Origin: Gloeobacterales cyanobacterium
GTDB taxonomy: Bacteria > Cyanobacteriota > Cyanobacteriia > Gloeobacterales > PMM-0068
Direction: 5' to 3'
Assembly: GCA_038245785.1 (NCBI GenBank)
Contig: JBBRSB010000001.1
Location: 256,001 to 320,000, forward strand
Length of the DNA: 64,000 bases
Made by a program: the position numbers and the translations under genes. Numbering within the stretch: the first letter of the stretch is position 1; each line of letters starts with the position of its first letter. Shown here piece by piece: positions 9,125 through 36,861 of the stretch. Under the pieces are notes generated by a model. The model was not told where the DNA came from and ran no database searches. It saw only the letters and a list, made by a program, of their open reading frames with translations.

Positions 9125-9679
9125 ATGCGTCTTTTCATCGGTATTTTGCTGGACGATGCAATCAAGGCAAGAGTTTCAGCGGTACAGCAAGCCCTCAAAC
9201 TACGTCTCGCAGATCAGTCCATCCGCTGGGTCAAACCCGAAAATTTGCACATTACCCTGCAATTTTTAGGTGAACAAAATCCAGACCGCTTATCGGTTAT
9301 TCAAACTGCTATGCAAGAATCGGCACAGGCCCACAGCCCATTTGAGATTAGTTTGGGTGGTTTGGGAGCCTTCCCCAACTTGCGTCGTTCCTTAGTCCTT
9401 TGGGTTGGTGTAGAAACGGGTGAGGAGCACTTAGGCAGACTAGCAAAGGATTTAGAAACAGCACTTGCGCCCAACCTAGTTGAGCGAGAACCTAGGAAAT
9501 TTCACGCCCATGTGACGTTGGCCCGATTTAAAACTCCTGTGCAAGACTTGGAGAACATTGTTAATCAAGAGCCAACCCCAAAATTAGGAAATCTATCGAT
9601 AAAAAGTTTTAGCCTGATGCAAAGTCAACCTAACGCTGACTCTCCGCAGTATTTAGAGCTGAAGCGGGTGGATTTCTGA
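9125..9679 (+). CDS. thpR: RNA 2',3'-cyclic phosphodiesterase (2H family)
   Basis: MRLFIGI start, two HxT motifs (LHITL, AHVTLAR), GAFP; start taken at 9125 (ORF opens at 9080). Confidence 0.85.
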   Translation: MRLFIGILLDDAIKARVSAVQQALKLRLADQSIRWVKPENLHITLQFLGEQNPDRLSVIQTAMQESAQAHSPFEISLGGLGAFPNLRRSLVLWVGVETGEEHLGRLAKDLETALAPNLVEREPRKFHAHVTLARFKTPVQDLENIVNQEPTPKLGNLSIKSFSLMQSQPNADSPQYLELKRVDF

Positions 9680-9762
9680 GCATAGTTGCCTCGTCAGAGG
9701 AAAAACCCAATTACGGCTTACGGGTTAGTAGATCTAGGAAGTTGGAAATGGGGCAGGTTTCA

Positions 9763-10998
9763 TTAGCTATTCCGTACAGAGCGCCAGCCCAAGATAGATG
9801 CAAGACTTTTAGTGGCACCAACGAATCCTTGGATTTGGTAACCTAGGTAAACTCGAATCGCCCACTCCTTTATATAGTCCTTAGGAACGAAAAGAAATAA
9901 ACATTTGAGCGTTGACCAAACACCTTGGGTTGCATAAGTAGTAGAAATGATTTCGGATAAACTCTTAAAAAATCTTGGCTTTTCATCTCCTATCCAAAGC
10001 AAGGGTTCGCTGTCCCACGGATCAAAAACAATAAATTTTGAGGAAAAGTTCCAGTGTGGACGAACAAACATCTGACCACGTTCATTTAATAAACAAGCGG
10101 CAAAGCTGAAAATGCTATTGCTCGTGGCAACAATGTCACAATTGCTCAAGATAAAAAAATCAACATAGAACTCTATATTTGCGTTTTGCATTCTTTCTGG
10201 GAGTTGCACCTGTAAATCTCGTGAGGTGATAGGAGAAAATTTCTCAAAAGCAGGCAGAATCCGATCGAGATCATCACTGCATAGAAAGAGAACGGGGTCT
10301 TCTAATTCATTCCAGATTTTGTCCAACCATTCGCAGTACCAGCTTTCAGGAAAAACTAAAGTAAATCCTGTTCGTGCTTGAGTAATATAATCACCTCGAC
10401 GAATATGAATTCCAATAATTGTTTTGCCTTTGGAGCGAAGAATTTGCAGACCTTCTTCCAAGGGGGATTTCAAGTCACTCACAGGTTGAAATAGTGAGCG
10501 AATATAGTCCTGGTAGGGAGCAAGTAAATGAGTTGATATCTGGAAGAAACCCCACAAGTCGACATTTGTGATGCCCTGTTCAAGAGTCTCTGCGCCAATG
10601 CGACGTATCTTTGTTCCGGCAAGTTTTTCAATGTGAGGGACAAGTTCTGGAACTATATCAAATAAGATCTCTTCATTATTTTTACGCTCAATGGCAGGTT
10701 CTAACCGACGGGAAATTGGAGCGTCATCATGTCCAAATAAAGTTTGTCCAATCCAGGGTGGGCATTCTACTAAAGATCCAGTTTTGTGGGCACAGATTCG
10801 AAGAAAAGCATACTGAAAAAGCTGATTACCAAATCGTCCCAATTGTCCTAAAGAAGACATGGTTAAAATTGATTGACCGGAGCCTTCAATGTCAGCATCC
10901 GGTGGAGATTGAACCTCCTTAGAATCTTTATTAAAAGTTTCAAAAATATCGAAGACTCGCTCTGTTTCACTTTCAGTTCTGTATTTAGGATTAGTCAT
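9763..10998 (-). CDS. Alpha-1,2-fucosyltransferase-like glycosyltransferase (GT11)
   Basis: GRFGNQLFQYA, IHIRRGDY, SDD, SNSIFSF motifs. Confidence 0.85.
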   Translation of the reverse strand: MTNPKYRTESETERVFDIFETFNKDSKEVQSPPDADIEGSGQSILTMSSLGQLGRFGNQLFQYAFLRICAHKTGSLVECPPWIGQTLFGHDDAPISRRLEPAIERKNNEEILFDIVPELVPHIEKLAGTKIRRIGAETLEQGITNVDLWGFFQISTHLLAPYQDYIRSLFQPVSDLKSPLEEGLQILRSKGKTIIGIHIRRGDYITQARTGFTLVFPESWYCEWLDKIWNELEDPVLFLCSDDLDRILPAFEKFSPITSRDLQVQLPERMQNANIEFYVDFFILSNCDIVATSNSIFSFAACLLNERGQMFVRPHWNFSSKFIVFDPWDSEPLLWIGDEKPRFFKSLSEIISTTYATQGVWSTLKCLFLFVPKDYIKEWAIRVYLGYQIQGFVGATKSLASILGWRSVRNS

Positions 10999-20601: not shown

Positions 20602-23600
20602 TCAGTTCACCTTTGCTTTGAAGCGCATGAACCCATAAGAGGTAGAAGGCGTGCCGGGGCCTGTAGACGTAGGAACCGTACCCGCGTTGACAAAGGCTGC
20701 ACCCCTACTATTGTTTGTCCCTGTACAGGCTGAATCAAAGGGACCTGGGTCTGCTATAAACTTTCCTTGATCGCTATCAGCAAGGTCCGTAAGGTTCGTA
20801 GGAGCACTAGAACCTATGGCCAGTTGGAGATTATTAGCTACATACGTACTATTGCCTGGAACGAAATCACAGAGTTTCACGTTGCCAGCATCCCTGCCCC
20901 CATCAGAAAGGAAGTAGATAGTGTATTCGACCTCATCATTGGGACGGGCATCACTGCGATTGATCACTCCTGGGAGAAAAGGACTGAAATTAGGATTGCT
21001 GCCTGGTCCAGGGTCTAGAGTCGCGGTGACCAAGGCGGGGAGATTGGGCCAGCCGGAAGCATTATCATCACTACTGCCTGTTCCACTGTTCACATCTATA
21101 TAGGTTGTGGCAAGGACATTGAGACCATCGCGGTTGATGGCAGTAATACGCTTTACCAGACGGACATGGGGAGGAGAGGCCGTAAAAGTTACGGTCGCAC
21201 TGCTCGTACCGCCAGTACCCCCGTTGCTTGAACTGATATTGCCAGTCGTGTTGTTGTAGATTCCTGCCGTTGGTGCGGTGACATTGACTAAGACGGTGCA
21301 GGTGCCACCGACTGTGATCGAACCACTAGAAAAGGAGATAGAGGCACTGCCTGCCGCTGGGCTGAAGGTTGGGGTGCCACAGCCGCTCGTGCTGGCATTG
21401 GGCGCTGTGGCTACGACCATCGCTCCGGGAGTGGTTGGGAAGGTGTCGCTGAATTGAACCCCGGTTAAAGTTGTGGATGCATTGGGATTGGTCAGCGCAA
21501 ATCGGAGGGTTGTCGGACTTCCTGCTGGAACCGAGTCAGGCAAGAAGGTTTTGGTAATGGTCGGTGGGGAAAGCGCGGTGAGACTGTCTGCTGCCGTACT
21601 CCCCGTACCGCCATTGGTCGAACTCACCGTGCCACTGATATTGCTGTAGCTTCCTGCGGTGAGCGCTACTATGTCCACCTTGACTGTGCAGGTGGCATTG
21701 GCGGCAAGGGTTCCTCCTGAGAAAGAGATAGAGAGACTGCCTGCCGTGGGCACGAAGGTGGGTGTTCCACAACCACTGGTACTGGCGTTAGGCGTAGGGG
21801 CCACTACCATAACTCCCGGAATCGTTGGGAACGTATCACTGAAGGCCACCCCCGTCAGGATGGTGGATGGATTCGGATTGGTGAGGGTGAACGTCAAGGT
21901 AGTAGGAACACTTATAGCCACTGAGTTAGGAGAAAAACTTTTGCTAATCGTCGGTGGGGCTGTACTTACTACCGTTAGCGTTGACGTTGCTGCTACTCCT
22001 GCTCCTGTGTTGGCGGTAGTGACTGTGCTACTGGTGTTGTTATAGGTGCCTGCGGTTGGGGCTGTTATATTCACGGTGACCGTGCAGCTTTCACCCCCGG
22101 CAAGCGTGCCCCCTGAAAAGGCAACAGACGCACTGCCTGCCGTGGGCGCGAAGGTCGGTGTTCCACACCCAGAAGAAGTACTCGCGGCAGGAGTAGAGGC
22201 CACTTTCATCGCTCCTGGAGTAGTCGGGAAAGTATCGGAGAAGGCAACGCTGGTTAAGGCTGTGGTTGCATTTGGATTGGTAACGGTAAAGGTCAGTGTT
22301 GATGTACCGTTTGTTCCAATAGTGCTTGGAGTAAAGGTTTTATTGAGGACGGCTGGGGCCAATGTAAACAAAGTCGCACTGGCTGTATTACCTGTGCCTC
22401 CGTTGGTAGAACTCACCGCGCCACTAATGTTGCTATAGGTTCCTACGGCTGGCGCGGTTATGTTGACGTTGACCGTGCAGGTGCCCCCACCCGCGATTGA
22501 GCCATTGGAAAATGAGATAGAAGTGCCGTTTGCGGCTGGGCTGAAAGTCGGAGTCCCACAGCCGCTTGTACTCGCACTGGGTGTAGCAGCGACTTTCATC
22601 GCTCCTGGCGAGGTGGGGAAAGTGTCAGAGAAAGCCACCCCCGTTAGGGTGGTAGAGGGATTTGGATTGCTAATCGTGAATCGGAGGGTGGTCGTCCCGC
22701 CTGGTGCAACGGCATTGGGAACAAAGGCTTTAGTGATAGAGGGTGGGACTACTGCCGATACAGTGAGCGTAGCGCTGGCAGTGGTTCCTGTCCCTGCGTT
22801 TGTGGTACTCACCCCACTACTCGTGTTGTTGTAGGTTCCTGCGGCGGGTGCCGTGATAGCTACACTCACCGTGCAGGTACCTCCAGCCACTATCGAACCG
22901 CCGGAGAAAGATATGGATGCGTTGCCTCCAGTTGGCGTAAAAGTTGGCGTACCACAGCCATTGGTCGTGGCATTGGGCGTTGCAGCCACTCCCATTGCTC
23001 CAGGCGTCGTCGGGAATGTATCGGTGAAGGCCACGCCTGTTAAGGGCGTTAATGTATTGGGATTGGTGAGCGTGAAGGTGAGGGTCGAGGTTCCTCCAGC
23101 CAGGATGGGAGATGGAGAGAAGGCTTTTGTGATACTGGCAGGAGTAAGCACCGCTAAAGTAGCTGTATTACTGACTGCTCCTGCTCCTACGCCCGTCTGC
23201 GTAGTCGTTGCACCGCTGCTGGTATTGGCGTAGCTGCCTGAAGTCGCTGCAGTAACAACCACGGTAATCGTACAGGTCCCTCCCGCAGCAAGATTGCCAC
23301 TATTTAAGCCGACATTACTATTGCCTGCGGCTCCCCCTGTGCTCGTTCCACCGCAGGTATTGCTTAGCGCGGGTGTGGAGGCAATTACTAACCCGGAGGG
23401 AAAGGTATCGCTGAAGGTTACCCCTGTGAAAGAGGTAGCTGTGGCATTGCTCAGCGTCAAGGTCAGGGTCGAAGTAGCATTAGGTGCAATCGGACTTGTA
23501 GAAAAAGACTTGCTGATGGTGGGCGCACCGACGCTATTAGCAATGGTGGTTGTGTTGTTTGTGAGACTCGGATCCAAAGTGGTGCTAGAAGCTGTAGCCG

Positions 23601-24687
23601 TATTACTGACGCTATTCGGGGCTACTGCTGTCACGGTAACGGTAATCGTGATGTCTGGCAAACTGGCACCGCTAACTACACTGGCCGTATTGTTCGTACA
23701 GGTAACTACCTGTAAAACAGCACTACAGCTCCAGTTGGTCCCTGTGCCGGAGACATAGGTGAGGCCGATAGGAAGCGTGTCTTTAACCGTAAAAGGACCG
23801 CTGGCACTCTGAGGACCGCTATTGCTAACTTTGAGGGTATAGCTGCCATTGGTTGACCGTGGAAACATAGGGCTGGAGGCAGTCTTGGTAATCGAAATGT
23901 CAGCAAATTTTGTGATGGAACCGAGGTCAGTTAGGCCAGCTACAGTACTACCAATTATCGAACTTCCACCACTCGGATTGATCCGAATAAGGTTGGTTCC
24001 AGAGGTACCGTATAGAAGGCTATCAGAGCCGTAGACCAAACCTGTGACGCTCGCGGCTGCTCCGGTGGCCGTTGCTATCGTCGGCAGGGAGGGAGGCGAA
24101 CCGCTGGGAGGAACTGAAATAGTTCCCTGTACTGCATACAAGTTGGTGCCAGTCACGATAAAAAGCTGGCCTGCAGATGAAAACGCCATGTCTCCACCGC
24201 CGTTCAAGGGGGGACCTGATACAGAAGCAACCAGGGTTGGGGCCCCTGTTGTTAAGTCAACGGTGTAAATATTATTTGTGGCCGGATCCATTGTGAATAA
24301 AATACCATCCGACCTAAACGTAAGCCTGTTGGTACCAAATCCGAGTGAGGCACTTAGGACAGTATTCAAGCCTGTAGTAGGGTCCCAGTAGGCAGGCTTG
24401 CCAGGACTGGCAGCCGAGTCAACATAATAGATTCTTCCTGTAACAGGGTCTCTAGCAATTCCATTGGTACTGTAAGAAAAAGTTCCGACTGAAGTAGTGG
24501 CTGCTGTACTTGGATCAATGGTGTAGATCGTAGTGCCATTAGTGCCGTAAATAATGTCATCGCGTGGAGGAGAAGCTGCTTCTACTATCCTCGCACTCAA
24601 GCCAAACCAGACCATCCATAAGGCAAGACAGACTAGGGAATGAGAAAAGAGTTTTTTGAGTGCACCTTGATTTCTAAAAAGAGGCAT
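20602..24687 (-). CDS. Large secreted adhesin: beta-propeller-like head, one DUF11 domain, six tandem Ig-like repeats, truncated C-terminal DUF11-like domain
   Basis: Signal peptide (...ARIVEA); propeller-like repeats (GGGDMAFSSAGQLF); six PxxxKxF...FS/TDTFP...CG...CT...YxN repeats; ends GFMRFKAKVN. Confidence 0.85.
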   Translation of the reverse strand: MPLFRNQGALKKLFSHSLVCLALWMVWFGLSARIVEAASPPRDDIIYGTNGTTIYTIDPSTAATTSVGTFSYSTNGIARDPVTGRIYYVDSAASPGKPAYWDPTTGLNTVLSASLGFGTNRLTFRSDGILFTMDPATNNIYTVDLTTGAPTLVASVSGPPLNGGGDMAFSSAGQLFIVTGTNLYAVQGTISVPPSGSPPSLPTIATATGAAASVTGLVYGSDSLLYGTSGTNLIRINPSGGSSIIGSTVAGLTDLGSITKFADISITKTASSPMFPRSTNGSYTLKVSNSGPQSASGPFTVKDTLPIGLTYVSGTGTNWSCSAVLQVVTCTNNTASVVSGASLPDITITVTVTAVAPNSVSNTATASSTTLDPSLTNNTTTIANSVGAPTISKSFSTSPIAPNATSTLTLTLSNATATSFTGVTFSDTFPSGLVIASTPALSNTCGGTSTGGAAGNSNVGLNSGNLAAGGTCTITVVVTAATSGSYANTSSGATTTQTGVGAGAVSNTATLAVLTPASITKAFSPSPILAGGTSTLTFTLTNPNTLTPLTGVAFTDTFPTTPGAMGVAATPNATTNGCGTPTFTPTGGNASISFSGGSIVAGGTCTVSVAITAPAAGTYNNTSSGVSTTNAGTGTTASATLTVSAVVPPSITKAFVPNAVAPGGTTTLRFTISNPNPSTTLTGVAFSDTFPTSPGAMKVAATPSASTSGCGTPTFSPAANGTSISFSNGSIAGGGTCTVNVNITAPAVGTYSNISGAVSSTNGGTGNTASATLFTLAPAVLNKTFTPSTIGTNGTSTLTFTVTNPNATTALTSVAFSDTFPTTPGAMKVASTPAASTSSGCGTPTFAPTAGSASVAFSGGTLAGGESCTVTVNITAPTAGTYNNTSSTVTTANTGAGVAATSTLTVVSTAPPTISKSFSPNSVAISVPTTLTFTLTNPNPSTILTGVAFSDTFPTIPGVMVVAPTPNASTSGCGTPTFVPTAGSLSISFSGGTLAANATCTVKVDIVALTAGSYSNISGTVSSTNGGTGSTAADSLTALSPPTITKTFLPDSVPAGSPTTLRFALTNPNASTTLTGVQFSDTFPTTPGAMVVATAPNASTSGCGTPTFSPAAGSASISFSSGSITVGGTCTVLVNVTAPTAGIYNNTTGNISSSNGGTGGTSSATVTFTASPPHVRLVKRITAINRDGLNVLATTYIDVNSGTGSSDDNASGWPNLPALVTATLDPGPGSNPNFSPFLPGVINRSDARPNDEVEYTIYFLSDGGRDAGNVKLCDFVPGNSTYVANNLQLAIGSSAPTNLTDLADSDQGKFIADPGPFDSACTGTNNSRGAAFVNAGTVPTSTGPGTPSTSYGFMRFKAKVN

Positions 24688-25547: not shown

Positions 25548-25889
25548 ATGGGTAAAGGAAAGACTATCTCTGCGTACACTGATGAGCAAACGGCGCTCAG
25601 AGTGGGCGAGTTGGCCACGCAGGAGCAGCGCAAACCAGCGCAGATTGCGGGCGCGGCGCTCAAATTGTATGTACAGTTGCCACCAGAAGCCCGCGAAGCC
25701 TTTCGGGCTATCGAACAGCAGGGAGGTCCAGCCCTCAAGTTGATGCGACGCGAAGTGACTCGCGCTTTGCTGAATGCTCAGTACGATTGGGCTAAGCAGC
25801 AGGCTATCCAGGCCATGAATGCTCCGGCGGTAGAACTTGAAAGTGAGGATGAGCTGTTGGCTGAGGCGGTGAGACTAACACGCTCGTGA
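25548..25889 (+). CDS. Putative antitoxin (RHH-like N-terminus)
   Basis: KTISAYTDE beta-strand followed by helices; GTGA overlap with the downstream PIN gene. Confidence 0.6.
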   Translation: MGKGKTISAYTDEQTALRVGELATQEQRKPAQIAGAALKLYVQLPPEAREAFRAIEQQGGPALKLMRREVTRALLNAQYDWAKQQAIQAMNAPAVELESEDELLAEAVRLTRS

Positions 25890-26473
25890 GCAGCATTCTA
25901 CGCCTGTGTCTGGATCTCAACATTTGGTGTGGAGACCTCATTGCTGAGCAGCATGGTCGCACGGATACAGCTACGCGCAAGCTTGTCGAGATGGTGCGTG
26001 CTGGGCAAGGTTCGCTTGGCCCCGTGCAACTAATCATTTCTTGGGGGATGATCAATCGGTTGCGCAAGGTGTATGTACAGGATCTACACATTCCAGCATC
26101 CGTGGCCGATACTTTACTGGGGGCGATTGCTGGCTATGCCGCTGTCGGACCGGCTGGGACTCCGCCGACCCTAACCTTGGGTGGTACGGGTGTGATACCG
26201 CTTGCTGATACTGAAGATGCCCATGTGCTAGAGACCTGCATAGCGGCCAAGGCCCATATCCTAGTGACCGCGAACTTTGCTGACTTTCTGACGGGCGGCA
26301 CAACAGGTGCGACTGTACTCGAAGCAGGTCGGATTGCTTTCTACACGGACCCTAGTGGTAGTCTGCTCATTGCCCATCCCTATGTGATGGCAGGCTGGCT
26401 CAGGCAAGGGCAGATCCTACTCCCTGACGGCAAGCAATGGGAGGTCAATTCACCTTCGCCAGGAAGCGAATGA
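25886..26473 (+). CDS. PIN-domain putative toxin (PIN_3-like)
   Basis: LCLDLNIW, EDAHVLETCIAAKAHILVTANFADF. Confidence 0.75.
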   Translation: MSSILRLCLDLNIWCGDLIAEQHGRTDTATRKLVEMVRAGQGSLGPVQLIISWGMINRLRKVYVQDLHIPASVADTLLGAIAGYAAVGPAGTPPTLTLGGTGVIPLADTEDAHVLETCIAAKAHILVTANFADFLTGGTTGATVLEAGRIAFYTDPSGSLLIAHPYVMAGWLRQGQILLPDGKQWEVNSPSPGSE

Positions 26474-29078
26474 AACCATAGGAATTGTTAGGTATTCCCG
26501 GAGCTGTTGCATTCGGTAGGGTATTTACTCCTTTCTCAATGTCAACAACCACCGCTCCATTAGTATTAGTTCCTGAACAGTTAGTGCTTGGAGTTGTCCC
26601 ACCCACGAAGAATTCACCTCGGTCTGCGTCACTGGCATTGCTCATATAGGTCGTTGTCAGACCAATTGCCATCGCTATGCCTGAATCGGCCCCTGGTAAA
26701 CCGCCATCTGTGGGTATCAAACCATTAAAAGTATTGGGACTAAAGGTATTGTTAGCAGGCACTAAGTCACAGACCGCGATCTTGGTGAGCGGGACATCGC
26801 CACTAGACAAGAAGTAGATGGTGTATTCCACATCGTCACCGGGTTTGACGATGCCGCCATCAATTGCTCCTTTTAGATAATTTGCAGGCCAGTTGGGTTC
26901 GTTGTCGTTCAGGTCAGCGGTTGTAGTCGGATCTACCACCGTTGTAATCGGGCTGGTATTGATAGCGGTGATTCGTTTGACTAGACTCAGTTTTGGATTG
27001 TTGGCAACGGGTACCGTCACTGTTGTGGGGTCAAGTGCGGTATCGTTACCCGTATTACTTTCCCCTCCACCCGATACGGTTGCATTATTGGTAACGCTAG
27101 AGGCTGCATTGGAAGCAACGTTCACTGTAAGCGTAATGGCTGGATAGCTAGCACCTGCGGCCAGGGCATCACTGCGGGTACACTGCACTTTTCCTGCCGA
27201 GGGAGTGTTGAGAGCACAGGTCCAGCCATTGATGGTACCCGTTGGGCCCGTTGCCGTCAGACCTGTAGGCAGGGTATCGACTACCGTTACAGTGCCACTG
27301 GTTGCTGCACCACCAGAGTTGGTCGCGGTAATCGTATAGGTTGCTCCAGTTTGTCCCTTCGTAAAGTTGCCCGTGTGGGTTTTGGTAATGGTCAGATCAG
27401 GAATACCGTTGATATTGGTGAGGTCCGTGGTGCTGTTGTTGGTAGTGGTGGCCTCTCCTCCACCAGCTACCGTTGCACTGTTGGTGACACTGGGGGCTGC
27501 ATTGGAAGCAACGGTCACCGTAATCGTAATGATTGGATAGCTAGCGCCTACGGCCAGGGCATCAGCGCGGGTACAGGTTAGGGTTGCCAAGGTGCAAGTC
27601 CAACCCGTACCACTGATGGCGGTTGCCGTCAGACCTGTAGGCAGGATATCGACTACTGTTACCGTTCCGTTAGTCGCTCCAGCACCAGAGTTCGTTGCCG
27701 TAAGTGTATAGGTTGCTCCTACTTGTCCTTGGGTGAAACTCCCGGTGTGGCTTTTAGTAATGGTCAGATCAGAATAGCCAATGGGAGTCGCTACCGTATT
27801 CGAGGTTGTGCTAGAAGGCGTATAGGGTAAATTTGTTGAAAAAGATACATTGTTCTGGATAGGCGTAAGAATAGTGCCCGCCAGCACTTTAAATGTCAGT
27901 GTTAAGGTGCCTGGGGTTATAGAGGTACAGGCTACGTTGGCACAAGTTCCCGCAGGGACGATTAGGTTAGACCAATCAATGGTCGAGCCCGAGAATATGC
28001 CTCCATTGGAAGCCGAGCTTACAACGTACGTAGAATTAGCCGGAATAGCATCTGAAACATTAACGTTATCGCTTGAAATACCCTTGTTCAACAGCGTAAT
28101 GGAGTAAGTAAGTTGCGTACCGGGGGTAACTGGCCCTAAAGGACTAACAGCTTTGCTGATGGTCGTATCCGGTGGTCCGCTGAATAGGGTATTGAAATAC
28201 GCTTGGCTGTCCTTCAGGCTATCGGCTACATCATTGATGGTGGCTTTGACATGATAGGTTTGCCCAGCTTGGACCAAGGCAGTAAAGTTTTTTAAGGGGA
28301 CGGTTCCACCGTCCATGGTGAACTCAGCACCAGCAGCAGTTGAATCGTTTGGAGCGGGACAGGCGATTAAAGTACACCCTGCTTTGAAAAAGAATGAGGA
28401 ATTAGTAGTTTCATTGATCGTATTAATCTGAATAGGAGTAGTTGTATTGGGCAAGCTGGCCAAATTCACCCCTGCTACAGGCAACCCTGGCCCGGTGATG
28501 ATGATGTCAATATTGTCGTTATAAGCTGTGCCAACATATTCCCGGTATTCCCAAGAGAAAAATGAATAGTTAAGCCCGAAACTGTTGTATTGAGGCTTTA
28601 CATCAAACTCAACAGTGGTAATGTCAAAGTTTGGGGAGCTTCCCCCTCCTCCTGTACTTACAGTCCTGCTATTCAAAGTTCCTGTGCGCAGTACGATGCC
28701 ATCACCGGGGAATCCACCCGCATTCGTAAATGTCCCAACACCACTTGTCCCAACACTAATACCCTTCCCCGATACGTTTGAGGTGATGGTGACATTAGAG
28801 ACTGTTGATCCTGATGCTGACCCGGCCAAAGTCGATTGCAAGGTGCTGGTAGTTATGGTCGGCGTAATCGACTGAGCAAAGACCGCGCTGTTACTTATGA
28901 TCATGCCAACAGAGAAAATCGCCAAAAATACCATTACCTGTGCGAACAACCCAGTACCGGACAACCGATGATTACTGCCTTTCTTCTTAGGAGAACGCAC
29001 CCCTGCCTCCAAGGCAGATTCGGAATTGTCATGCCAGGGTGTAAAGAATGCGCTTAGATGTTCGACTAGAAATTTCAT
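26445..29078 (-). CDS. Secreted adhesin: choice-of-anchor-L-like head, three DUF11 domains, truncated C-terminal DUF11-like domain
   Basis: Start taken at ATG 29078 (AGGA upstream; the longer ORF runs through a repeat); signal ...NSAVFA; GIVLRTG/FFSWEYREYVGTAYND head; DLTITKxHTG repeats; ends GFIRFLAKVN. Confidence 0.82.
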   Translation of the reverse strand: MKFLVEHLSAFFTPWHDNSESALEAGVRSPKKKGSNHRLSGTGLFAQVMVFLAIFSVGMIISNSAVFAQSITPTITTSTLQSTLAGSASGSTVSNVTITSNVSGKGISVGTSGVGTFTNAGGFPGDGIVLRTGTLNSRTVSTGGGGSSPNFDITTVEFDVKPQYNSFGLNYSFFSWEYREYVGTAYNDNIDIIITGPGLPVAGVNLASLPNTTTPIQINTINETTNSSFFFKAGCTLIACPAPNDSTAAGAEFTMDGGTVPLKNFTALVQAGQTYHVKATINDVADSLKDSQAYFNTLFSGPPDTTISKAVSPLGPVTPGTQLTYSITLLNKGISSDNVNVSDAIPANSTYVVSSASNGGIFSGSTIDWSNLIVPAGTCANVACTSITPGTLTLTFKVLAGTILTPIQNNVSFSTNLPYTPSSTTSNTVATPIGYSDLTITKSHTGSFTQGQVGATYTLTATNSGAGATNGTVTVVDILPTGLTATAISGTGWTCTLATLTCTRADALAVGASYPIITITVTVASNAAPSVTNSATVAGGGEATTTNNSTTDLTNINGIPDLTITKTHTGNFTKGQTGATYTITATNSGGAATSGTVTVVDTLPTGLTATGPTGTINGWTCALNTPSAGKVQCTRSDALAAGASYPAITLTVNVASNAASSVTNNATVSGGGESNTGNDTALDPTTVTVPVANNPKLSLVKRITAINTSPITTVVDPTTTADLNDNEPNWPANYLKGAIDGGIVKPGDDVEYTIYFLSSGDVPLTKIAVCDLVPANNTFSPNTFNGLIPTDGGLPGADSGIAMAIGLTTTYMSNASDADRGEFFVGGTTPSTNCSGTNTNGAVVVDIEKGVNTLPNATAPGIPNNSYGFIRFLAKVN

Positions 29079-29102
29079 TACGGACTTCCTGGGAACTTTT
29101 TT

Positions 29103-29256
29103 GGCCCCCCTGCCCCCCCTAGCGAAGCTTCCCGAAGGGTACCTTGGGGGGTTCTGAGGGAAAGTTTTATAAGAACTGAACTCTGCCCACCCATCACTGC
29201 TGTCTGGAGCTGGAGAGGGATGTTTCTCCCCCCAGAATTGGGGGGCCGGGGGGGCC
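29103..29256. repeat. C-rich/G-rich inverted-repeat element with a nested ~22 nt insert
   Basis: ggcccccctgccccccc...cttgggggg left arm; ccccccagaattggggggccgggggggcc right arm. Confidence 0.65.
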
Positions 29257-29355
29257 TGCTCTAATAGTTCCCTTATCGGGCTGCACTTCTGAGGTTTTGT
29301 CCTTAACTGGCACATAATTTTCATCTCACCTTGGCTTGGAAGCGAATTTCCTTTT

Positions 29356-32300
29356 TTAAGGAAGAGCGGGTTCTGCAAAATGTGCTGAGACAAGCGTCGC
29401 GGCAGAGGTGTCGAGCGGAGACAGTTCGTTCAGATACACAGGTCCAGAAGGGTGTGCGGGTGTAGGAACTGGAGCTTGGGAAACAGTCGGTGCCGCTGTT
29501 GCAGCATTGGGGGACTCTGTCTGAGGTAGAACAAGCGGTGGCGCTGCTGTTTTAGGCGGCTCTACGGGAGGCAAGGACTTGGCTAGCGGAGACTCCTGCA
29601 GTTGGACGGGAGCAACTTGTTGCAAACCAAAGCCATCAAAGAGTTCATTGACCTTGAGCGTGATGCCCAGATAAGGTCCAGCGGCATAGCGAGTACCACT
29701 GAAATCGCGGTCATTGTTGATACTGCCAAAGCTGTAACCACCCGCCAGGCGAAGATTTGGAGAGAGGTAGTAACCCAGCTCGGCAACGCCGCCGGTTTCG
29801 CTGTAGCCTGCAGTCGGTTGGCTAATCGAGCGAATTTCACCAACTAAGTCGGTATTGTAGCCCAAACGATAACGGGCACGTAGCTGAGCCAGAGAGACCA
29901 TGCTGGAAACAGAGAAATCTTGAGCAAGATTGGTCGTGCTGCTGCGTAGAGCGTACTTGCCGTAGAATTCCCACTGCCAATTCGGTGCATAAATTGCTTC
30001 CAAGGCCAAAGTATGGTCAGCAGAACCCGTACCGCTGCCAAACAAAATCGTGTTCGGAATGACCGATGGATTCTGGCGGTACTCATAGCGCAACAGGGCA
30101 TTGAAACTGTTGTCCTTGGGATTGCGATAGGCCAAGCCTAGTTTCAGGTCCTTCGTGTCCGCCAGTCCAGTCAAGAGTTGATTGGCAGAATTTGCCTGGT
30201 TGTAGCGCAGGAGGGCGGTCAGGGAAGGAGAAAGTTTTCCGGTGACGCCTGCGGTGATAACGGTGTTGTCCCCGGCTCCGCTGGTCCGCTTTTCATAGCG
30301 AGCACTGGCTTTGAAATCAGGATTTGCGGTGTATTCAAAACCGAGGCCGTAGTTGTCTCCGCTTTGGATTCCTAGAGCCGAAGCGCTTTGACCGATGGCA
30401 TAGGGTTGAGCAAACTGAAGCCCTGCGCCTGTATTGGCAAATACGTTACCCAAGACATGTTCATAGTTGAGATTGGCGGTGAGGCCCGCAGAGAGGACCA
30501 AGCGCTGGTTAAGGCCAATCGCTCCTTGGTTAGAAGGACCGTTGGCTCCACTGATCACAGAATAACGTCCGGTCAGAGTTGTATTTTCTGCGAGTTTGTA
30601 ATCGGCCAGGGTATCGAGACTGGTAATCGAGTTGCTGCCAAACTGTCCACCAGAGAAAAATTGCTGGTTCAGTTGGATTCTGATGCCTGGATAAACGGCC
30701 CACTCTAGACCAAGAATCGTGCGGTCAGGATAGCTCAGGTCCTGACGGGGAGAAAGGTTCAGCTCATTCTGCGCCCGGAAGGTTACTTTATCGGTAACCG
30801 GAACGGTCAGTCTGGAACGCAGCTGGCTGGAATTTCCAGCAATATCTGGCTGGAGGCGGTCTTCACGGGTCCGATTGAGCAAATCCACTTCTAATTTGCT
30901 GCTGCCCAGCTGTTGGGCGACGCCTACCGTAAAGGTAGTCAGACTATTGTCCACCTGCATGCCGGGGATGGCGACGGGACCAGGATTGAAGAGGTCCGTA
31001 AAGGTAAGTCGGGGTTGAGGTGCAATTCCCTTATTATCTTCCCGGTCGTACTGCACCTTTACGTTCGTAGTCGGGGAGACCTGAGCCGTCAGGTCCACGC
31101 CATAACGGGTTTGCCCTGGTACAAAACTAATGGTGGCATTATTGGCAAAGCCACTATCGGCAGCACGCAGATAGGCACGGCCTCTGATCTCTTTAGAAAG
31201 TTCTCCGTCGAATTCCACCCGAAAAGCGGAACCGCTGGCCGGACCGACCACTTCCGAATCATTTTGAGAATGGGCATATTCGGCAATTAGCTTGCTGTTG
31301 GGACCGAGCGAGAAGAGGGCATCCGCTCCATAGAGTTCAAACGTGCGGACTCCCTGGTTTTCCTTAACGTAGGTCGTTCCTAGCCAGCTTTCTCGGTTCA
31401 GTTCTTTGGAGAAGTGGTAACGGGCGCGAGCACCGTAAATATTGGCATTTTCTCTACTTTCATATTGATAAGTCGCTACTAAACGACGCACCAAAAGCCG
31501 ACCATCTTGGCCGATTTCTGTCCGCAAGAGGGGGCTGCGGAGCAAGATAGCGCCCCGGTCATAGTCAATGTCATAGTCTGTGCTGCGGGATAGGAGTTTG
31601 CGCTCGATCACCGTGCCGGGACGGTTGATTTCTTCTAGTTCGACGGCAAGCTGTTCACTTCCTGCCAAGAGCAGTCGGCGGGATACAAAGTAGTAGCCAC
31701 TGGTGCCATCGGGAGCAATCGTGTCGCGCTGGAAACCCTGGACATTGTCGCCATAGAGTCCGGTGAGCTGTAGGTTGCCAAAGTTGTAGTTGAGTTTGAG
31801 TCCATGCAGTTGACGGCTGAGGGCGGTCAATTGTTGATTGCTTGTCGAAAATTCTTTCGCCGTATCGTAATCGCCCCACAGAGCAGAGTCTTGGTTGCGT
31901 TCTAAACGAAGGAATAAGCTGTCTTTTGATTGAGCGGTGCGTTCCGTGCTGGAACTATCGCCAAATACGGGATAGGGCTGGTCGCAAGACTGGACATCTT
32001 GGTAGAGGCGACTACTGTCATTGCAATCCAGGTTAAGCGAGCGGCTGTTGTTGTAGGCTCCGGTGAAGAGCCAATCCCCAACTTTACCCGTAGCAAACAC
32101 GGCACTGCGCAGGTCTAGTTTGGTGGTGTTGTTGCGGTCAGGCGGTAGAAAGTCTCGGAAACTACGGTAGTAATCGGTTCCTTGAGCGCCCAGTCGTAAA
32201 TTAACTACGCCCGTGACGAGAGAAGGACGCAAACTGGTCTCGAATTCTAGCTGGGAAGAGGCTGCCAGGTCTGCCGCTCTGGCCTCAACCTTGACTACTT

Positions 32301-32949
32301 GCGCTTCTAAGTTAGAACGTAGATTGGCTACATACTGGCCCTTTTGGACTTTGACCTGGAACCCAGCCTGGTCGGGGTCTGCGTCGGTTCCGGTGAATTC
32401 GCCAGCGCTACTAGTCAGCGTCACCATCGCATCCCGGTCTGAACGATTGCCTTGCTCATCCAGAAGTTGGCCTTCTAGGGTAACGGTTGAACGACCATCG
32501 GCGGGGAGCTTAGCCTGTGCAGACTTGACCGTGATTTTCTTAGGGATACCGCGCACGAATACTTTGACAATGATTTTCTCTCCACCCTTAACCTGGGCCA
32601 CGAGCGTGTTCTCACCCTCTTTCAGGGAAAGGCCATACCAGGTTTGGGTGACCAGGTTGTTTTTGGTATCCGTTTCTGTACGCCCAATCAAGGTACGGTC
32701 TGCTGGGACATCATTGACCAGCAGATCTACGTCTTTGCCCACATCCAGCGGAAACTGTAAGACCACATTCGTTGCCGGAATGTCCACGATTGAATTCGGG
32801 GCAGGATTGAGAATTTTGACGACTCGGCTGGCTGCATTCGGCGGAGTGAGTTCCGTTTGGGCAATGGGCTCTGCTTTGACCACACAGCTAAAGCTCAAGC
32901 TCCCAGCCAGATAGAAGAGAATTCCTGTACGTACTACAGAAGATTTCAT
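29356..32949 (-). CDS. Large outer-membrane protein: periplasmic Ig/invasin-like domains plus a predicted beta-barrel
   Basis: Signal peptide; LPADGRSTVTLEGQLLD invasin-like motif; several hundred residues of alternating amphipathic strands (GARARYHF, YGLGFEY, LGLAYR, ELGYYL); Pro-rich tail. Confidence 0.75.
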   Translation of the reverse strand: MKSSVVRTGILFYLAGSLSFSCVVKAEPIAQTELTPPNAASRVVKILNPAPNSIVDIPATNVVLQFPLDVGKDVDLLVNDVPADRTLIGRTETDTKNNLVTQTWYGLSLKEGENTLVAQVKGGEKIIVKVFVRGIPKKITVKSAQAKLPADGRSTVTLEGQLLDEQGNRSDRDAMVTLTSSAGEFTGTDADPDQAGFQVKVQKGQYVANLRSNLEAQVVKVEARAADLAASSQLEFETSLRPSLVTGVVNLRLGAQGTDYYRSFRDFLPPDRNNTTKLDLRSAVFATGKVGDWLFTGAYNNSRSLNLDCNDSSRLYQDVQSCDQPYPVFGDSSSTERTAQSKDSLFLRLERNQDSALWGDYDTAKEFSTSNQQLTALSRQLHGLKLNYNFGNLQLTGLYGDNVQGFQRDTIAPDGTSGYYFVSRRLLLAGSEQLAVELEEINRPGTVIERKLLSRSTDYDIDYDRGAILLRSPLLRTEIGQDGRLLVRRLVATYQYESRENANIYGARARYHFSKELNRESWLGTTYVKENQGVRTFELYGADALFSLGPNSKLIAEYAHSQNDSEVVGPASGSAFRVEFDGELSKEIRGRAYLRAADSGFANNATISFVPGQTRYGVDLTAQVSPTTNVKVQYDREDNKGIAPQPRLTFTDLFNPGPVAIPGMQVDNSLTTFTVGVAQQLGSSKLEVDLLNRTREDRLQPDIAGNSSQLRSRLTVPVTDKVTFRAQNELNLSPRQDLSYPDRTILGLEWAVYPGIRIQLNQQFFSGGQFGSNSITSLDTLADYKLAENTTLTGRYSVISGANGPSNQGAIGLNQRLVLSAGLTANLNYEHVLGNVFANTGAGLQFAQPYAIGQSASALGIQSGDNYGLGFEYTANPDFKASARYEKRTSGAGDNTVITAGVTGKLSPSLTALLRYNQANSANQLLTGLADTKDLKLGLAYRNPKDNSFNALLRYEYRQNPSVIPNTILFGSGTGSADHTLALEAIYAPNWQWEFYGKYALRSSTTNLAQDFSVSSMVSLAQLRARYRLGYNTDLVGEIRSISQPTAGYSETGGVAELGYYLSPNLRLAGGYSFGSINNDRDFSGTRYAAGPYLGITLKVNELFDGFGLQQVAPVQLQESPLAKSLPPVEPPKTAAPPLVLPQTESPNAATAAPTVSQAPVPTPAHPSGPVYLNELSPLDTSAATLVSAHFAEPALP

Positions 32950-34424
32950 GGTCGTTTTTCCTTGTACGTGGGGGTGACGCCAAAATTCATCCGCACCAAA
33001 CCGCCTGGTTCTAAGTTCACGAAGCGAGACTGACTATTGAGTTCGATAAAATGGATATTTGGGGCGAAGGTATATCCCGGTAGGCTATTGAGGTCTAGAA
33101 CTCCGGTGTGGGGTCCAGAAGTCACATTGGCGACGGAGAACAGACCGTTGGGATCGGTGGTGATGCGGGTGCCATTGTCCATGAAGACCACGGCATTGGG
33201 CACTCCTGGTTCATCAGGCTGCTGTTCGCCGTCAAAGTTTTTGTCTGTAAATACTGTCCCGAGAATCAAACCCCGGTCGGAGAGGATACCAGGACGGATC
33301 TTGAGACGGTAGACAGCAGGGCCACCGCGTACTGGACGGTTGTTGCTTACCCGGCGACCGACTACGGAAGCTGAGTTTTGGCCTGAGCCGCGAATGGCAT
33401 CGGGCGTGAGGGTTGTGGCATAAGCAATGTTGAGACTCATGCCCACAGGAATGGTTGCACCTGTGGCATCTAAGAGGACGGTCGAGCCACTCCGGGTTGC
33501 CGTAACCGCTACGGGGCTACCTGAAACTTCTGCCCGTACGGAGTTTTGCAAGAAGTCAAAACCGAGGGGAAGAGTATCGGTTACCTGGATCGAATCTAGG
33601 GGAGAAGTAGATAAATTTTTGACCTCCACCCGATAGACAATCGTGTCTCCTGTTTCAGCGGTAGCACGATCTCCTATCTTGGTAATTTGGATTTCGTTGG
33701 GTTGGCAAACACTGGTATTGAGGCCAGTTATGAGGATCAATCCAACCGTTGCTGCATCGCCAATCGTAGTGGTATTGGTTGTGGAAACAGTCGGATTGCT
33801 GGTGATCGCTAAGGGATTATTATCTAGAGATGTAGCTTCATAGGTAACGTTGTTGCCCACACGGTTAGTAATTTTTAGAAGAATTCTGCGCTGGCTGTAA
33901 ATACCACCTGTAGGGGGATTGACCACTAGGATATAGGTTCTACCTGTATCCAATTGCCCTCTTCTTGCATCAAAGAGAAAGTTATAGTTGCCCTTGCCAC
34001 TATCAGACAGAAAGAAAGGATTACTGTTTTGCGTATTGGGAGCAGCTCCACCTGGAATGGTATTGCTCAAATCATCGGGTACTTCTGTGCGCGTCAGAGA
34101 TACTAGAGAGCCAAGGTCTGTGCCATTCGGCGTGTCATATAAACTAATACTGAATCCCTTATAGCTGCTCAGCGTTTCTCCATCACAACCTGTTACCCGG
34201 CCTAAGGGATCGATCAATTCAAAGCTGGAGCTATTCTGATTAGAAGCTAAACTGGCCTGAGCATAGCCCTGAGGATCACGATAGACCAGGCTCGCCTGAT
34301 TCCTGAAGGTCGTATTGGTCTGAGCCAAAACAGGTTGAGCTAGGGGTAACATTCCACCTACTAGTAATAGCTGAAAGCAACGTTGTAAGAAATCACTAGA
34401 GCGCTTTTTGCACAAGGAAGCCAC
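32946..34424 (-). CDS. Secreted DUF11 + SdrD-B-like protein (putative anchor/adaptor)
   Basis: Signal ...QPVLA; IQITKIGDRATAETGDTIVY DUF11; GTVFTDKNFDGEQQPDEPGV...TTDPNGLFS SdrD-B-like; 4 bp overlap with the barrel gene. Confidence 0.82.
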   Translation of the reverse strand: MASLCKKRSSDFLQRCFQLLLVGGMLPLAQPVLAQTNTTFRNQASLVYRDPQGYAQASLASNQNSSSFELIDPLGRVTGCDGETLSSYKGFSISLYDTPNGTDLGSLVSLTRTEVPDDLSNTIPGGAAPNTQNSNPFFLSDSGKGNYNFLFDARRGQLDTGRTYILVVNPPTGGIYSQRRILLKITNRVGNNVTYEATSLDNNPLAITSNPTVSTTNTTTIGDAATVGLILITGLNTSVCQPNEIQITKIGDRATAETGDTIVYRVEVKNLSTSPLDSIQVTDTLPLGFDFLQNSVRAEVSGSPVAVTATRSGSTVLLDATGATIPVGMSLNIAYATTLTPDAIRGSGQNSASVVGRRVSNNRPVRGGPAVYRLKIRPGILSDRGLILGTVFTDKNFDGEQQPDEPGVPNAVVFMDNGTRITTDPNGLFSVANVTSGPHTGVLDLNSLPGYTFAPNIHFIELNSQSRFVNLEPGGLVRMNFGVTPTYKEKRP

Positions 34425-34497: not shown

Positions 34498-36861
34498 CTA
34501 GTTGATCTTGCGGCGGAAAGTAAACGTTTTGCTTACCCCTGGTCCTATAGGGCCAGTAATGGTATCTACATATTTGGTGACATCCGTAGTTGCGGTTGTC
34601 CCCGCTTGGTCTACGGCGGCAGTAGCGCCTGTGGCACCACTGAAGAAGGTAATCACGGTACCCGTTCCAGAATCACGAGCGGAGCCAAGCACATTGCTGG
34701 TATCAAAGGAACCATTGCTGTCGTTGTCTAGAGCCCAGTTGTTGCCAGTCAATCCACCGATGGTGCCGTTTTCGGTAACCACAATGTCTTTGGCATCCAG
34801 CACCGCATTACTTCCAGAACCTGCTTGCGCTTCTGTGATGTTCTTGTAGGTGATGTTGTACTCGATGATGCTTCCAGGAGGAACATTGCCCGTGATCGCT
34901 GTTCCAGCAGGAACTAGTTCTGTTGCGCCATCGGCCGCTAGAACCCGTGCCGTTTTAGCCAGGGTCATGAAACCGACATAAACCCGGTCAATGGAGGTGT
35001 TCTGAGCATCGGCAGCATCTAAGCCAGCAGGCCCTAGATCGATAAAGGCTGCAACAGGAACAGGAATACCGGTGAAGGTGGGCGCTCCAGCAGGTAGGTC
35101 AACGGATACCCCGTAGTTGGCAATTCCACCGACGGGAATATCTGCGGCAGGAATTACGACGGGGGTCCCGGTAGTGGCAGGAACTCCTCCGGTGTAGGTG
35201 TAGGTTGCGGATTGACTACCGTAGGAGATTGTCACCTTAGTACCATTGGGGATAGTCCCTGCTGCGACGGTAGCAGGTGCTAGGGATATAGGAGTCGTAG
35301 AGGTCCCTGAGTTTTGCACGGTACCAGTGAAAGCTGCAGGGCTAGGGTCGGTTCCGACTAATAGGGCGGCCTTGTTGGTGAAGTCATCGTTATTGCTCGT
35401 AGGACCGATGGCCGTGGGTGCGCCAGAAGGACCATTTAGAACAGTAGAAGGAGGGGCAATCGAGACGAGGTTCGCTTCCCCATCTGGACCTGTACCGGAG
35501 TTATTACCGGGGTCATTGCCGTCGGTCGCGCCTGGGACGCCCGTGTTGGTGGCTGGATCAAAGGGGTCAGCAATAGGACTGGGGCCATCGGTGAAGTTGC
35601 TAGGATTCTGGTCTCCAGATTCGTCGTAGACCAGGATAGTGCCACCGGGAGTGGTACCGAATATTTGAGCCAGGTTACGAACACTGGTACCTGCGGATGT
35701 AACGCCACTGGTAACGACTTGGAAGGAAAATCCGGTGACGGTGGTTCCTGCACTTACTGGGCCATTGTTGATAAAACCGACCCGAGCTACGGTAGTGCCA
35801 GGTACGGTAGTCCAGGCAGCAAGCGTGGAGTTAGGCTTAGTAGCCGTGAGATCTGAGGTGTAGACGGTGGTCCAGCCTGAGGGTGCAACAGGGGTACCTG
35901 CTATCAAAACTGTGCTTACAGGAACAGCATCCGAAACCAAAATCCGAGTGACGGTAGCGCCATCTACGGTGATAGGAGTACCGGCTAAGGGAGCGGCAGA
36001 AAATCCTGTGCTTCCTAGAGGGGCAGCACTGTCTACCCTCAGGCTCAAACTGTAGGTAACCTTGTCATCGGTGAGCGTGCTTGGTGTGCCATTGTCCGTA
36101 TAGGCACTGCCCTTGAGGATGGCCGCGAAGGCTTGAGGGTTACTGCCCACGGTAGCGGTCTGGGTCGCACTGGCTTCACGAGTACCGTTAATCGGAGCGA
36201 AGGCTGCATCGGCAGGAACGGTTCCATCTACGGTAAATACGTCTCCGGCTTGGGAGGTAGCTGCCGTCCGCTCTTGGTTCTGAGCATCTCCGGGGGTGTT
36301 ACCCAATTGAATGGAGATTGCTTGGCCTGTTGTTGCGCCAGGACTGACTTGGATAGGGACTCTTACTTTGATCGTGCCGCCTACAGGAATATCGGCGGTA
36401 GTGAAAGAACCACCGCTAATTGCGACAAACCCGCTGCCCGTATCGACAGACAAGCTCCCATTGATACTGCCAGGACCAGCGGTCACCGTGGCCAGGTTAG
36501 GAATCGTAAATCTTGTTGCGTCGTTACCTGTGTTGGTAATTACGTAGTCATAGTAAAGGACTGAGCCGGGAGTGATAGAGGCTCCGGCCACTGCTGGCGT
36601 AACACCAGCGGAAGTAAGCGTCATACCCGCAACTTCTGCGACGGTGACGGTGACAGTATTGGAAGTGGTAGGGGGCTGCGCTACGCCTGCGTTGTCAGAG
36701 TAGGTAGCTTGGGCCGTGTTGCTGATAGTAGTACCAGCCGTAGTGCCAGAAGCCCAAGCGGCGGGAGCCAACTGTAGGATACTACTCACGAGAAAAGTAG
36801 CGGCCAGCAAACCACTACTGTGACTCCTTGGTGTTTTGGATAGCTTTTCGAGAAGACGCAT
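34498..36861 (-). CDS. Secreted Thr/Gly-rich multi-Ig protein, putative major filament subunit
   Basis: Signal ...PAAWA; mature N-terminus SGTTAGTTISNTAQATY; C-terminal DUF11-like domain MTLAKT...PGSIIEYNITYKN ending FTFRRKIN. Confidence 0.82.
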   Translation of the reverse strand: MRLLEKLSKTPRSHSSGLLAATFLVSSILQLAPAAWASGTTAGTTISNTAQATYSDNAGVAQPPTTSNTVTVTVAEVAGMTLTSAGVTPAVAGASITPGSVLYYDYVITNTGNDATRFTIPNLATVTAGPGSINGSLSVDTGSGFVAISGGSFTTADIPVGGTIKVRVPIQVSPGATTGQAISIQLGNTPGDAQNQERTAATSQAGDVFTVDGTVPADAAFAPINGTREASATQTATVGSNPQAFAAILKGSAYTDNGTPSTLTDDKVTYSLSLRVDSAAPLGSTGFSAAPLAGTPITVDGATVTRILVSDAVPVSTVLIAGTPVAPSGWTTVYTSDLTATKPNSTLAAWTTVPGTTVARVGFINNGPVSAGTTVTGFSFQVVTSGVTSAGTSVRNLAQIFGTTPGGTILVYDESGDQNPSNFTDGPSPIADPFDPATNTGVPGATDGNDPGNNSGTGPDGEANLVSIAPPSTVLNGPSGAPTAIGPTSNNDDFTNKAALLVGTDPSPAAFTGTVQNSGTSTTPISLAPATVAAGTIPNGTKVTISYGSQSATYTYTGGVPATTGTPVVIPAADIPVGGIANYGVSVDLPAGAPTFTGIPVPVAAFIDLGPAGLDAADAQNTSIDRVYVGFMTLAKTARVLAADGATELVPAGTAITGNVPPGSIIEYNITYKNITEAQAGSGSNAVLDAKDIVVTENGTIGGLTGNNWALDNDSNGSFDTSNVLGSARDSGTGTVITFFSGATGATAAVDQAGTTATTDVTKYVDTITGPIGPGVSKTFTFRRKIN

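Follow-up and report, generated by a model that had tools for sequence, protein, structure and literature searches.

A cyanobacterial surface protein with a candidate isopeptide domain split between its two ends, a putative subunit of a covalently locked fibre

The gene p787 encodes a putative shaft subunit of 787 amino acids and occupies positions 34498..36861 on the minus strand of a 64,000-nucleotide stretch (the window; positions 256,001 to 320,000 of contig JBBRSB010000001.1, assembly GCA_038245785.1) from a Gloeobacterales cyanobacterium, where it was located from the list of open reading frames (ORFs) and its translation. Near its mature N-terminus it carries an Asn, and in its C-terminal domain a Lys and a Glu, which may be the separated members of one isopeptide triad. 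Sortase-assembled pili of Gram-positive bacteria are covalent, Lys-linked polymers of multi-immunoglobulin (Ig) subunits with internal isopeptide domains, and they need a sortase and LPXTG; in contrast, p787 ends in RRKIN without LPXTG, and the bond proposed for it would be autocatalytic. In chaperone-usher pili (discussed in PMC9715654 and PMC12397347) each Ig-like subunit is completed by its neighbour, which contributes an N-terminal extension, and the system has an outer-membrane pore and a terminator subunit, the latter being a close analogue of the role proposed below for the protein p492. Linkage there is non-covalent, a single strand is donated and a PapD-like chaperone acts as donor, whereas p787 would donate two strands and the small protein p183 of related loci looks like an acceptor. 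No usher or PapD-like family was matched in Pfam scans of five proteins of the window and four of a paralogous locus, and by its gene content the locus is not a chaperone-usher locus. SpyTag/SpyCatcher is an engineered split of CnaB2, with one reactive residue on one piece and the Lys and the catalytic Glu on the other. The likeness to p787 would lie in a split isopeptide domain whose pieces reconstitute and ligate spontaneously; the differences are that SpyTag/SpyCatcher is man-made, forms a Lys-Asp bond and derives from a CnaB domain, whereas the split of p787 is natural, permuted, contained in one polypeptide, of the Lys-Asn type and in a CnaA/DUF11-like domain.

The closest precedent appears to be the "exchange and lock" fibre formed by BsaA of Clostridium perfringens. 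In the available part of the preprint describing it (bioRxiv 10.1101/2024.11.04.621531), E56 catalyses a bond between N35 of the donor strand and K74 of the following subunit, and mutating any of these three residues abolishes the oligomers. The same part of the source invokes no sortase for the bond and reports oligomers resistant to heat and to sodium dodecyl sulphate. As in BsaA, an N-terminal donor Asn would be combined with an acceptor Lys and a catalytic Glu, and the N-E-K triad is present in the sequence of p787. However, BsaA is a small single-domain protein of TasA-like fold from a monoderm, whereas p787 is a four-domain circular permutant of 787 residues, CnaA/DUF11-like and with a DUF7925 domain, in a diderm; its operon family adds a dedicated gene for a putative outer-membrane barrel and, in separate proteins, donor-only and acceptor-only partners. 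The Pfam scan of p787 returned no TasA or BsaA homology. A further comparison is provided by the archaeal thread of Saci_0406, for which donor-strand complementation by an N-terminal tail and a proposed intermolecular isopeptide bond with no known sortase are described in the available text (PMC9715654). That bond joins the N-terminal alpha-amine of Asp24 to Asn57 of subunit n+2 and involves neither Lys nor an acid triad (PMC9715654, same portion); the organism is archaeal and no homology to p787 is known.

The DUF7925 family originates from a survey devoted to intramolecular isopeptide bonds (PMC12617251), which, in the portion available, describes CLIPPER, DUF11 and DUF7925 as CnaA-like Ig domains of diderm surface stalks with Lys in the first strand, Asp or Glu in the middle and Asn in the penultimate strand; its Table 1 gives the DUF7925 triad Lys264/Asp326/Asn415 for Q8YS00. 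In all of these the bond is formed within one contiguous domain, whereas the Asn strand of p787 lies 588 residues upstream of the Lys, with three domains between them. In the literature found, DUF7925 is named only by this survey. Our literature search on DUF7925, cyanobacterial DUF11 pili, intermolecular isopeptide bonds combined with donor strands, and isopeptides of Nostoc and Anabaena, which covered the survey apart from its per-protein predictions, found neither this operon nor a split isopeptide domain. Two further leads are different systems: the DUF11 "grappling hook" of Litorilinea is a single protein of 6,596 amino acids, and the Microcystis CT pilus consists of a 12-kDa pilin with glycosyltransferases.

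Behind a signal peptide (residues 1-37; 36751..36861, minus strand, as for all parts of p787), p787 can be divided into a short donor segment and four domains, D1 to D4. The signal peptide was read from the sequence, is modelled with a predicted local distance difference test score (pLDDT) below 50, and ends in AAWA before SG, which by eye places the mature N-terminus at S38. The donor segment (residues 38-76; 36634..36750) consists of two strands, ISNTAQATYSD ... TSNTVTVTV, and contains N48 (codon 36718-36720), the 11th residue of the mature protein. D4, the putative acceptor half-domain (residues 620-787; 34501..35004), was delimited by conservation, couplings and a weak DUF11-like register; it contains K636 (codon 34954-34956) and the strand IVVTE (residues 693-697) ending in E697 (codon 34771-34773), and it closes with KTFTFRRKIN at the stop codon. 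The initial annotation had placed the Asn, the Lys and the IVVTE strand at these same positions and had given their separation as about 590 residues; the codons check out in the translated ORF, and the distance is the 588 residues given above.

Between the two halves lie the remaining domains. D1 (residues 77-240; 36142..36633) is Ig-like with no Lys in its first strand; by VIA-align its best match is TTHA1873 (Z 9.8, rmsd 2.8, 125 aligned, model range 77-240), and pilin middle domains are matched as well. D2 (residues 246-423; 35593..36126) is a CnaA-like DUF7925 domain by Pfam and VIA-align. Pfam matches p787 to a single family, DUF7925 (PF25546), over residues 246-423 (E 2.7e-57; 194 bits, cut-off 26.5), and VIA-align relates D2 to BcpA (Z 9.1) and to CLIPPER 9ifr (Z 8.3). 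The structural neighbours of D1 and D2 include the sortase-type pilins BcpA, SpaD, EbpB and PilA. K250, D311 and N396, as mapped by our own reading of the D2 sequence, are a candidate intramolecular triad of D2. The linker between D2 and D3 (residues 424-494; 35380..35592) is conserved in sequence and modelled with low confidence; its motifs DESGDQNPSNF, GxGPxGE and LNGPxGxPxAxGPTxNNDDFTNK recur throughout the family, and in the contiguous relatives described below they sit on either side of the module. D3 (residues 495-612; 35026..35379), recognized from predicted strands, is a beta domain that always precedes D4. This division follows an AlphaFold2 (AF2) model built on a 35-sequence alignment (mean pLDDT 75), which shows three short N-terminal strands followed by D1 (about 77-240), D2 (about 241-417), D3 (about 495-612) and D4 (about 620-787), with low confidence (pLDDT below 50) over residues 415-492. 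The model as a whole gave only generic multi-Ig matches when compared with the PDB by Foldseek (PrgB Ig-like domains, integrins, the AgI/II C-terminus), and VIA-align found matches for D1 and D2 only. A phmmer search of PDB sequences returned one chance match (E 0.41), and a profile of the homologue alignment returned none.

That the N-terminal strands and D4 are parts of one split domain is strongly supported by domain order, by conservation and by the pattern of Lys loss. The domain order is revealed by nine large relatives of 991-2910 amino acids (P0160, P0178, P0181, P0238 and P0267-P0271), found by an exhaustive search and its follow-up. In all nine, only 1-7 residues separate a full-length match to D4 from the donor segment behind it, no signal peptide intervenes, and the junction reads ...F.FQR.VN-xTAAGxxIxNxAxATYED...; D3 directly precedes D4 in each of them. 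The order is D3-D4-donor-D1-D2 in P0178, P0181 and P0267, D3-D4-donor-D1 in P0238 and D2-D3-D4-donor-D1 in the partial record P0160, while P0268, P0269, P0270 and P0271 have D3-D4-donor and lack both D1 and D2. The donor strands thus remain attached to D4 where D1 is absent (4/9), which means that they belong to D4 and not to D1. All 308 split homologues holding the five parts have the order donor-D1-D2-D3-D4, and the end of D4 is the exact C-terminus of the protein in 269 of them. Given the domain order of the relatives, p787 is a circular permutant with its break inside D4, before the last two strands. At the level of sequence it is thus established that circular permutation has divided the terminal domain of a multi-domain surface protein between its two ends, which is unusual. 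A search for longer forms with the D4 of the window returned none, which is weak evidence, and the same search with P0238 returned eight.

In P0268-P0271 the D3-D4-donor module forms a contiguous cassette within giant adhesins, from which it appears that the module is mobile among surface proteins and across phyla. One source gives P0270 as Runella defluvii, P0269 is named Synechocystis sp. LKSZ1 and assigned to the ExeM/NucH family, and P0270 and P0271 carry Pfam PF18962.

The conservation of the three residues is the second line of evidence. A word-index search gave 1271 relatives of p787 at E <= 1e-3, those with names being cyanobacterial, and an exhaustive phmmer scan matched 594 clusters at 50% identity. 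A relative is encoded in 345 species genomes, all 80 listed loci are cyanobacterial, and identity to most relatives is about 38-53%. Conservation was scored on 342 non-identical homologues, among which 327 N-termini could be aligned and 321 sequences had both ends. Position 48 is N in 326/327 N-termini (S in one), position 636 is K in all 331 aligned rows of split proteins, and position 697 is E in 319, D in 11 and G in one of these rows. Among the 321 sequences with both ends, the combination is N/K/E in 301 and N/K/D in 11, and the exceptions are five gaps at 697, one S48, one G697 and two T636. Near-invariance of N48, K636 and E697 in more than 300 homologues argues that the triad is not a chance occurrence. 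Absence of the Lys and the Asn from homologues had been named as grounds for discarding the initial annotation, and both prove to be conserved.

Other partners for K636, and another acid, fared worse. The earlier reading that D4 has no Asn strand of its own holds in the sense that the remaining Asn and Asp residues of D4 vary while K636 is constant. A bond between K636 and N723 is rejected, as 69 split rows and 9/9 contiguous forms have H at position 723, five of the contiguous forms keeping the Lys. A bond with D760 is unlikely, since some homologues that retain K636 have G, V, A, N or E in its place. An intramolecular bond with N787 is rejected because this residue is E in seven rows and D in two; it is also disfavoured by the coupling registers, which set N787 some 10 residues away from K636 along the sheet, and by the Lys found at the equivalent C-terminal position in most adhesin C-terminal domains. 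E667 is rejected as the catalytic acid: it varies to Q, D, R and V and couples with R639 in the manner of a surface pair, which makes E697 the better candidate and agrees with the proposal that IVVTE marks the position of the catalytic acid (E or D in 330/331 rows). D4 also contains a conserved DNDxNGxxD loop (residues 712-720; window 34702-34728, minus strand), with strong couplings 712-720 and 702-706 in the insert, and this loop looks like a possible calcium-binding motif.

The third line of evidence comes from the fate of the Lys in the contiguous relatives, where the position is K in 5/9 and T in 4/9, two of the T forms having also changed E697 to Q. Loss of the Lys in 4/9 contiguous against 0/317 split proteins gives a Fisher p of 2.7e-7, uncorrected for shared ancestry; the T forms may share an ancestor, in which case the independent events of Lys loss may number one or two. 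We read this as a relaxation of the constraint on Lys and Glu once the chain is continuous, as would be expected if the split form depends on the bond to keep its two halves joined.

The resemblance of the two halves to DUF11 is weak and is detected at the profile level. Compared by hhalign with the DUF11 domains of the same loci, D4 gives E 7.7e-4, the donor segment 0.0075 and the nine contiguous forms 0.1, and the register is the same each time: PGxxIEYxITYxN falls on strand B of DUF11, VVITE on VTVTD, pGxSxTFTFxRxV on the strand before the Asn strand and IsNTA on the Asn strand. In the contiguous relatives the succession K, E, end of D4, N and last strand is the order of the DUF11/CLIPPER triad. 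It had also been noted that the donor strand resembles those of complete DUF11 domains in adjoining genes, and the motifs are indeed found there, SVSNTATA in domain 1 of p1361 and SVTNSATV and SVTNNATV in domains 2 and 3 of p982; each of these domains also holds its own Lys and Asp.

Mean-field direct coupling analysis (DCA) within D4 (285 sequences, effective number 153) gives the pairs 637-669, 639-667, 632-693, 665-783 and 671-777, which form ladders of strand 632-641 with 664-674 and of 664-674 with 777-786. The pair 632-693 joins the positions four residues before K636 and E697, respectively, and the registers place N787 and 722/723 at the end of the sheet far from K636. The free edge of the strand bearing K636 would be open for an added strand, and in the proposed reading N48, K636 and E697 would lie close together in the folded domain. 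In the donor segment, the couplings 47-69 and 52-65 are those of a hairpin.

The operon around p787 supplies the context for deciding how the two halves could meet. The genes p492, p1197 and p982 follow p787 on the same strand, with p1361 further on. The protein p492 (32946..34424, minus strand; DUF11 and SdrD_B-like Pfam matches) is a donor-only protein: its mature N-terminus reads TFRNQASLVYRD with N42 (34299-34301), and behind it come a DUF11 domain, which is complete, and one resembling SdrD_B. A hidden Markov model (HMM) of this N-terminus, built from 71 homologues and run against the ORFs of at least 60 amino acids in this genome, found p787 (E 9.3e-6) and its paralogue (6.3e-4), the next match having E 0.47, and hhalign related the N-termini of p492 and p787 with E 1.8e-4; by these matches the two N-termini are homologous. 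The motif N.A...[YF].[DNE] is present in 57/71 p492 homologues, and most of the others have NxAxYxY. The p183 family is the converse: it comprises secreted proteins of 183 residues with a single DUF11-like domain, whose genes usually lie between those of the shaft and p492. Its Pfam match to DUF11 (E 1.3e-5) covers only profile positions 10-58 of 114 and ends before the Asn strand, and the protein itself ends on a ...V.A.Y...V[RK] strand. An N.A motif occurs within the last 45 residues of 3/73 p183 proteins. At the acid position 67/73 have Q and 2/73 have E, the latter being the proteins of this genome and its nearest relative. The third partner, p1197 (29356..32949, minus strand; 1197 residues), is an outer-membrane beta-barrel candidate with an N-terminal Big_1/invasin-like part. 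It scores 27.1 bits for Porin_4 against a cut-off of 27 and 24.5 bits for Invasin_D3, below the cut-off, and an Atlas search returned no named family for it.

In 81 loci, some of them cut by contig ends, a p492-like gene was found in 73, a p183-like gene in 73, a p1197-like gene in 70 and the adhesin C-terminal domain in 36. This genome has a second, complete paralogous locus (L001, 6613-18033, contig 11, plus strand), which encodes in order a shaft protein of 870 residues, p183 (9331-9882), a p492-like protein of 498, a barrel of 1227 and an adhesin of 893 residues ending in ...FLRFRAKVK.

We infer a bond between K636 and N48, formed in trans rather than in cis, and roles for p492, p183 and p1197 in the assembly that would result. 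After Sec export, the N-terminal hairpin of one subunit would enter D4 of another by donor-strand complementation, and K636 and N48, helped by E697, would form a spontaneous isopeptide bond. The product would be a covalently joined head-to-tail chain in which rigid D3-D4*-D1-D2 rods alternate with linkers of about 95 residues. With a donor segment and no acceptor, p492 would end the chain at the cell as its base or terminator; p183, DUF11-like with no Asn strand and usually no acid, would cap or chaperone the free donor; and p1197 would be the secretion and assembly pore in the outer membrane. Complementation in trans is preferred because donor-only and acceptor-only proteins fit the two ends of a head-to-tail assembly. 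The initial annotation had combined two claims. On the one hand, that the N-terminal strand and the C-terminal domain are the halves of one isopeptide-type domain is supported by the domain order, the conservation and the loss of Lys; on the other hand, the Lys-Asn bond between subunits, and with it the polymer, is favoured by the logic of the operon. In our estimate there is an even chance that p787 is the repeating subunit of a surface fibre in which the split D4 is complemented in trans and locked covalently. That the locus encodes a new class of diderm pilus, sortase-independent and covalently polymerised, with p183 as an inverted chaperone and p492 as a terminator at a barrel of about 1200 residues, is a more tentative proposal, with the balance tipped slightly against it. 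The small p183 may be a non-covalent cap or such an "inverted" chaperone for the donor strands.

Several observations weigh against a fibre of this kind. D4 is not recognized as DUF11 by Pfam: PF01345 has no match in p787 at E <= 0.01, nor in four contiguous relatives scanned at E <= 1, and by profile-profile comparison D4 and the contiguous form give weak matches (E 5e-4 to 0.1, probabilities 0.6-31%), so that by sequence D4 may be called DUF11-type only weakly. D4 alone has about 10 predicted strands, and a vacancy for two more is not evident. An AF2 model of the contiguous domain, made from a 4-sequence alignment, has a mean pLDDT of 38 and is unusable. Coevolution between donor and D4 reaches a top score of 1.68 (top pairs 1.68-1.43) against a maximum of 1.42 for shuffled pairings, which is no stronger than that between donor and D2 (1.87 vs 1.69) or donor and D3 (1.73 vs 1.62). 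The top pairs, 49-625, 50-623, 52-666, 51-634 and 52-632, are thus not above controls, and the register 51-634/52-632, which would set N48 opposite K636, is not relied on. The N48 equivalent is N in 9/9 contiguous forms, including those that have lost K and E, so no co-loss points to N48. At the level of the operon, p787's own locus in the window has no p183 gene, and in 7/81 loci with full 10-kb flanks the shaft gene stands alone (L054, L063, L065, L068, L075, L076 and L079). These lone relatives are 42-44% identical and occur in several Nostoc genomes with no relative of p183, p492 or p1197 within 10 kb; they could be orphan paralogues dependent on a locus elsewhere.

The more likely of the two alternatives is that N48 and K636 form no bond; p787 would be a monomeric adhesin of the beads-on-a-string type that leaves the cell by way of p1197. 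The hairpin would then be a structural cap or a non-covalent donor, and K636 and E697 would be kept for something else, such as a salt bridge or another partner. This view is favoured by the lack of a DUF11 assignment, the strand count of D4 and the coevolution scores at control level, and also by the survey cited above (PMC12617251), whose available part notes DUF11 domains without the bond and in Table 1 reports for this family only the DUF7925 triad. But it has to accommodate the retention of K in 331/331, N in 326/327 and E or D in 330/331 rows at identities of about 38-53%, the joint decay of K and E in contiguous chains only, the match of the donor N-x-A to the Asn strand of complete DUF11 domains next door, and a donor segment that travels with D4 when D1 is absent. 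We consider it unlikely, yet deserving of weight.

Self-closure is the weaker alternative. The N-terminal hairpin would complete D4 of its own chain, and the K636-N48 bond would cyclise a stable monomer without any polymer. Circular permutants usually reassemble within one chain, and the strands 45-48, 51-55 and 70-74 have a pLDDT of about 87 in the AF2 monomer, as if packed on something in the same chain. The linker between D2 and D3 has at least 49 residues in all 308 homologues measured (range 49-144, 5th percentile 78, median 95), and by our own rough chain estimate, made with no tool, it could span the four-domain rod at moderate cost. However, D3 and D1 flank D4 and the donor in contiguous chains, and if they are spatially opposite the linker would be stretched to about half its contour length; moreover, self-closure leaves the donor-only p492 and the acceptor-only p183, each present in 73/81 loci, without a partner, and we hold it to be improbable.

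If the bond does form between subunits, p787 would be a natural counterpart of SpyTag/SpyCatcher inside a diderm pilus, and covalent fibre assembly would extend beyond the sortase world into a phylum known for mats, biofilms and symbioses. The "exchange and lock" principle, based until now on BsaA, would gain a CnaA/DUF11-like fold and a further type of envelope. A so far uncharacterized operon, present in hundreds of cyanobacterial species, would be given a function, and protein engineering would gain a family of orthogonal, naturally evolved ligation pairs.

Two adhesin-like proteins are encoded beyond p1197. The first, p982 (26445..29393, minus strand), was assigned by Pfam and NCBIfam a choice-of-anchor L domain and three DUF11 domains, followed by a C-terminal domain LVKRIT...FIRFLAKVN. 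Its listed ORF starts at a TTG overlapping the end of p1197 (29356-29393), about 150 residues before a plausible signal peptide (…MVFLAIFSVGMIISNSAVFAQS), and its true start is probably further downstream. The second, p1361 (20602..24687, minus strand), consists by Pfam of DUF11 and DUF7933 (six stretches) repeats with a C-terminal domain like that of p982 (34% identity, E ~5e-26 by tblastn). The idea that p982 and p1361 are acceptor-only tips was dropped, as an HMM of D4 run against this genome finds p787 and its paralogue only and misses their C-terminal domains. In the adhesin C-terminal domain, NTNGAVVV aligns with the DUF11 Asn strand by hhalign at low confidence; an Asn strand may therefore already be present in this domain, and a "tip first" architecture has no support. 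Between p982 and p1361 lies an ORF of 195 amino acids on the plus strand (25886-26473).

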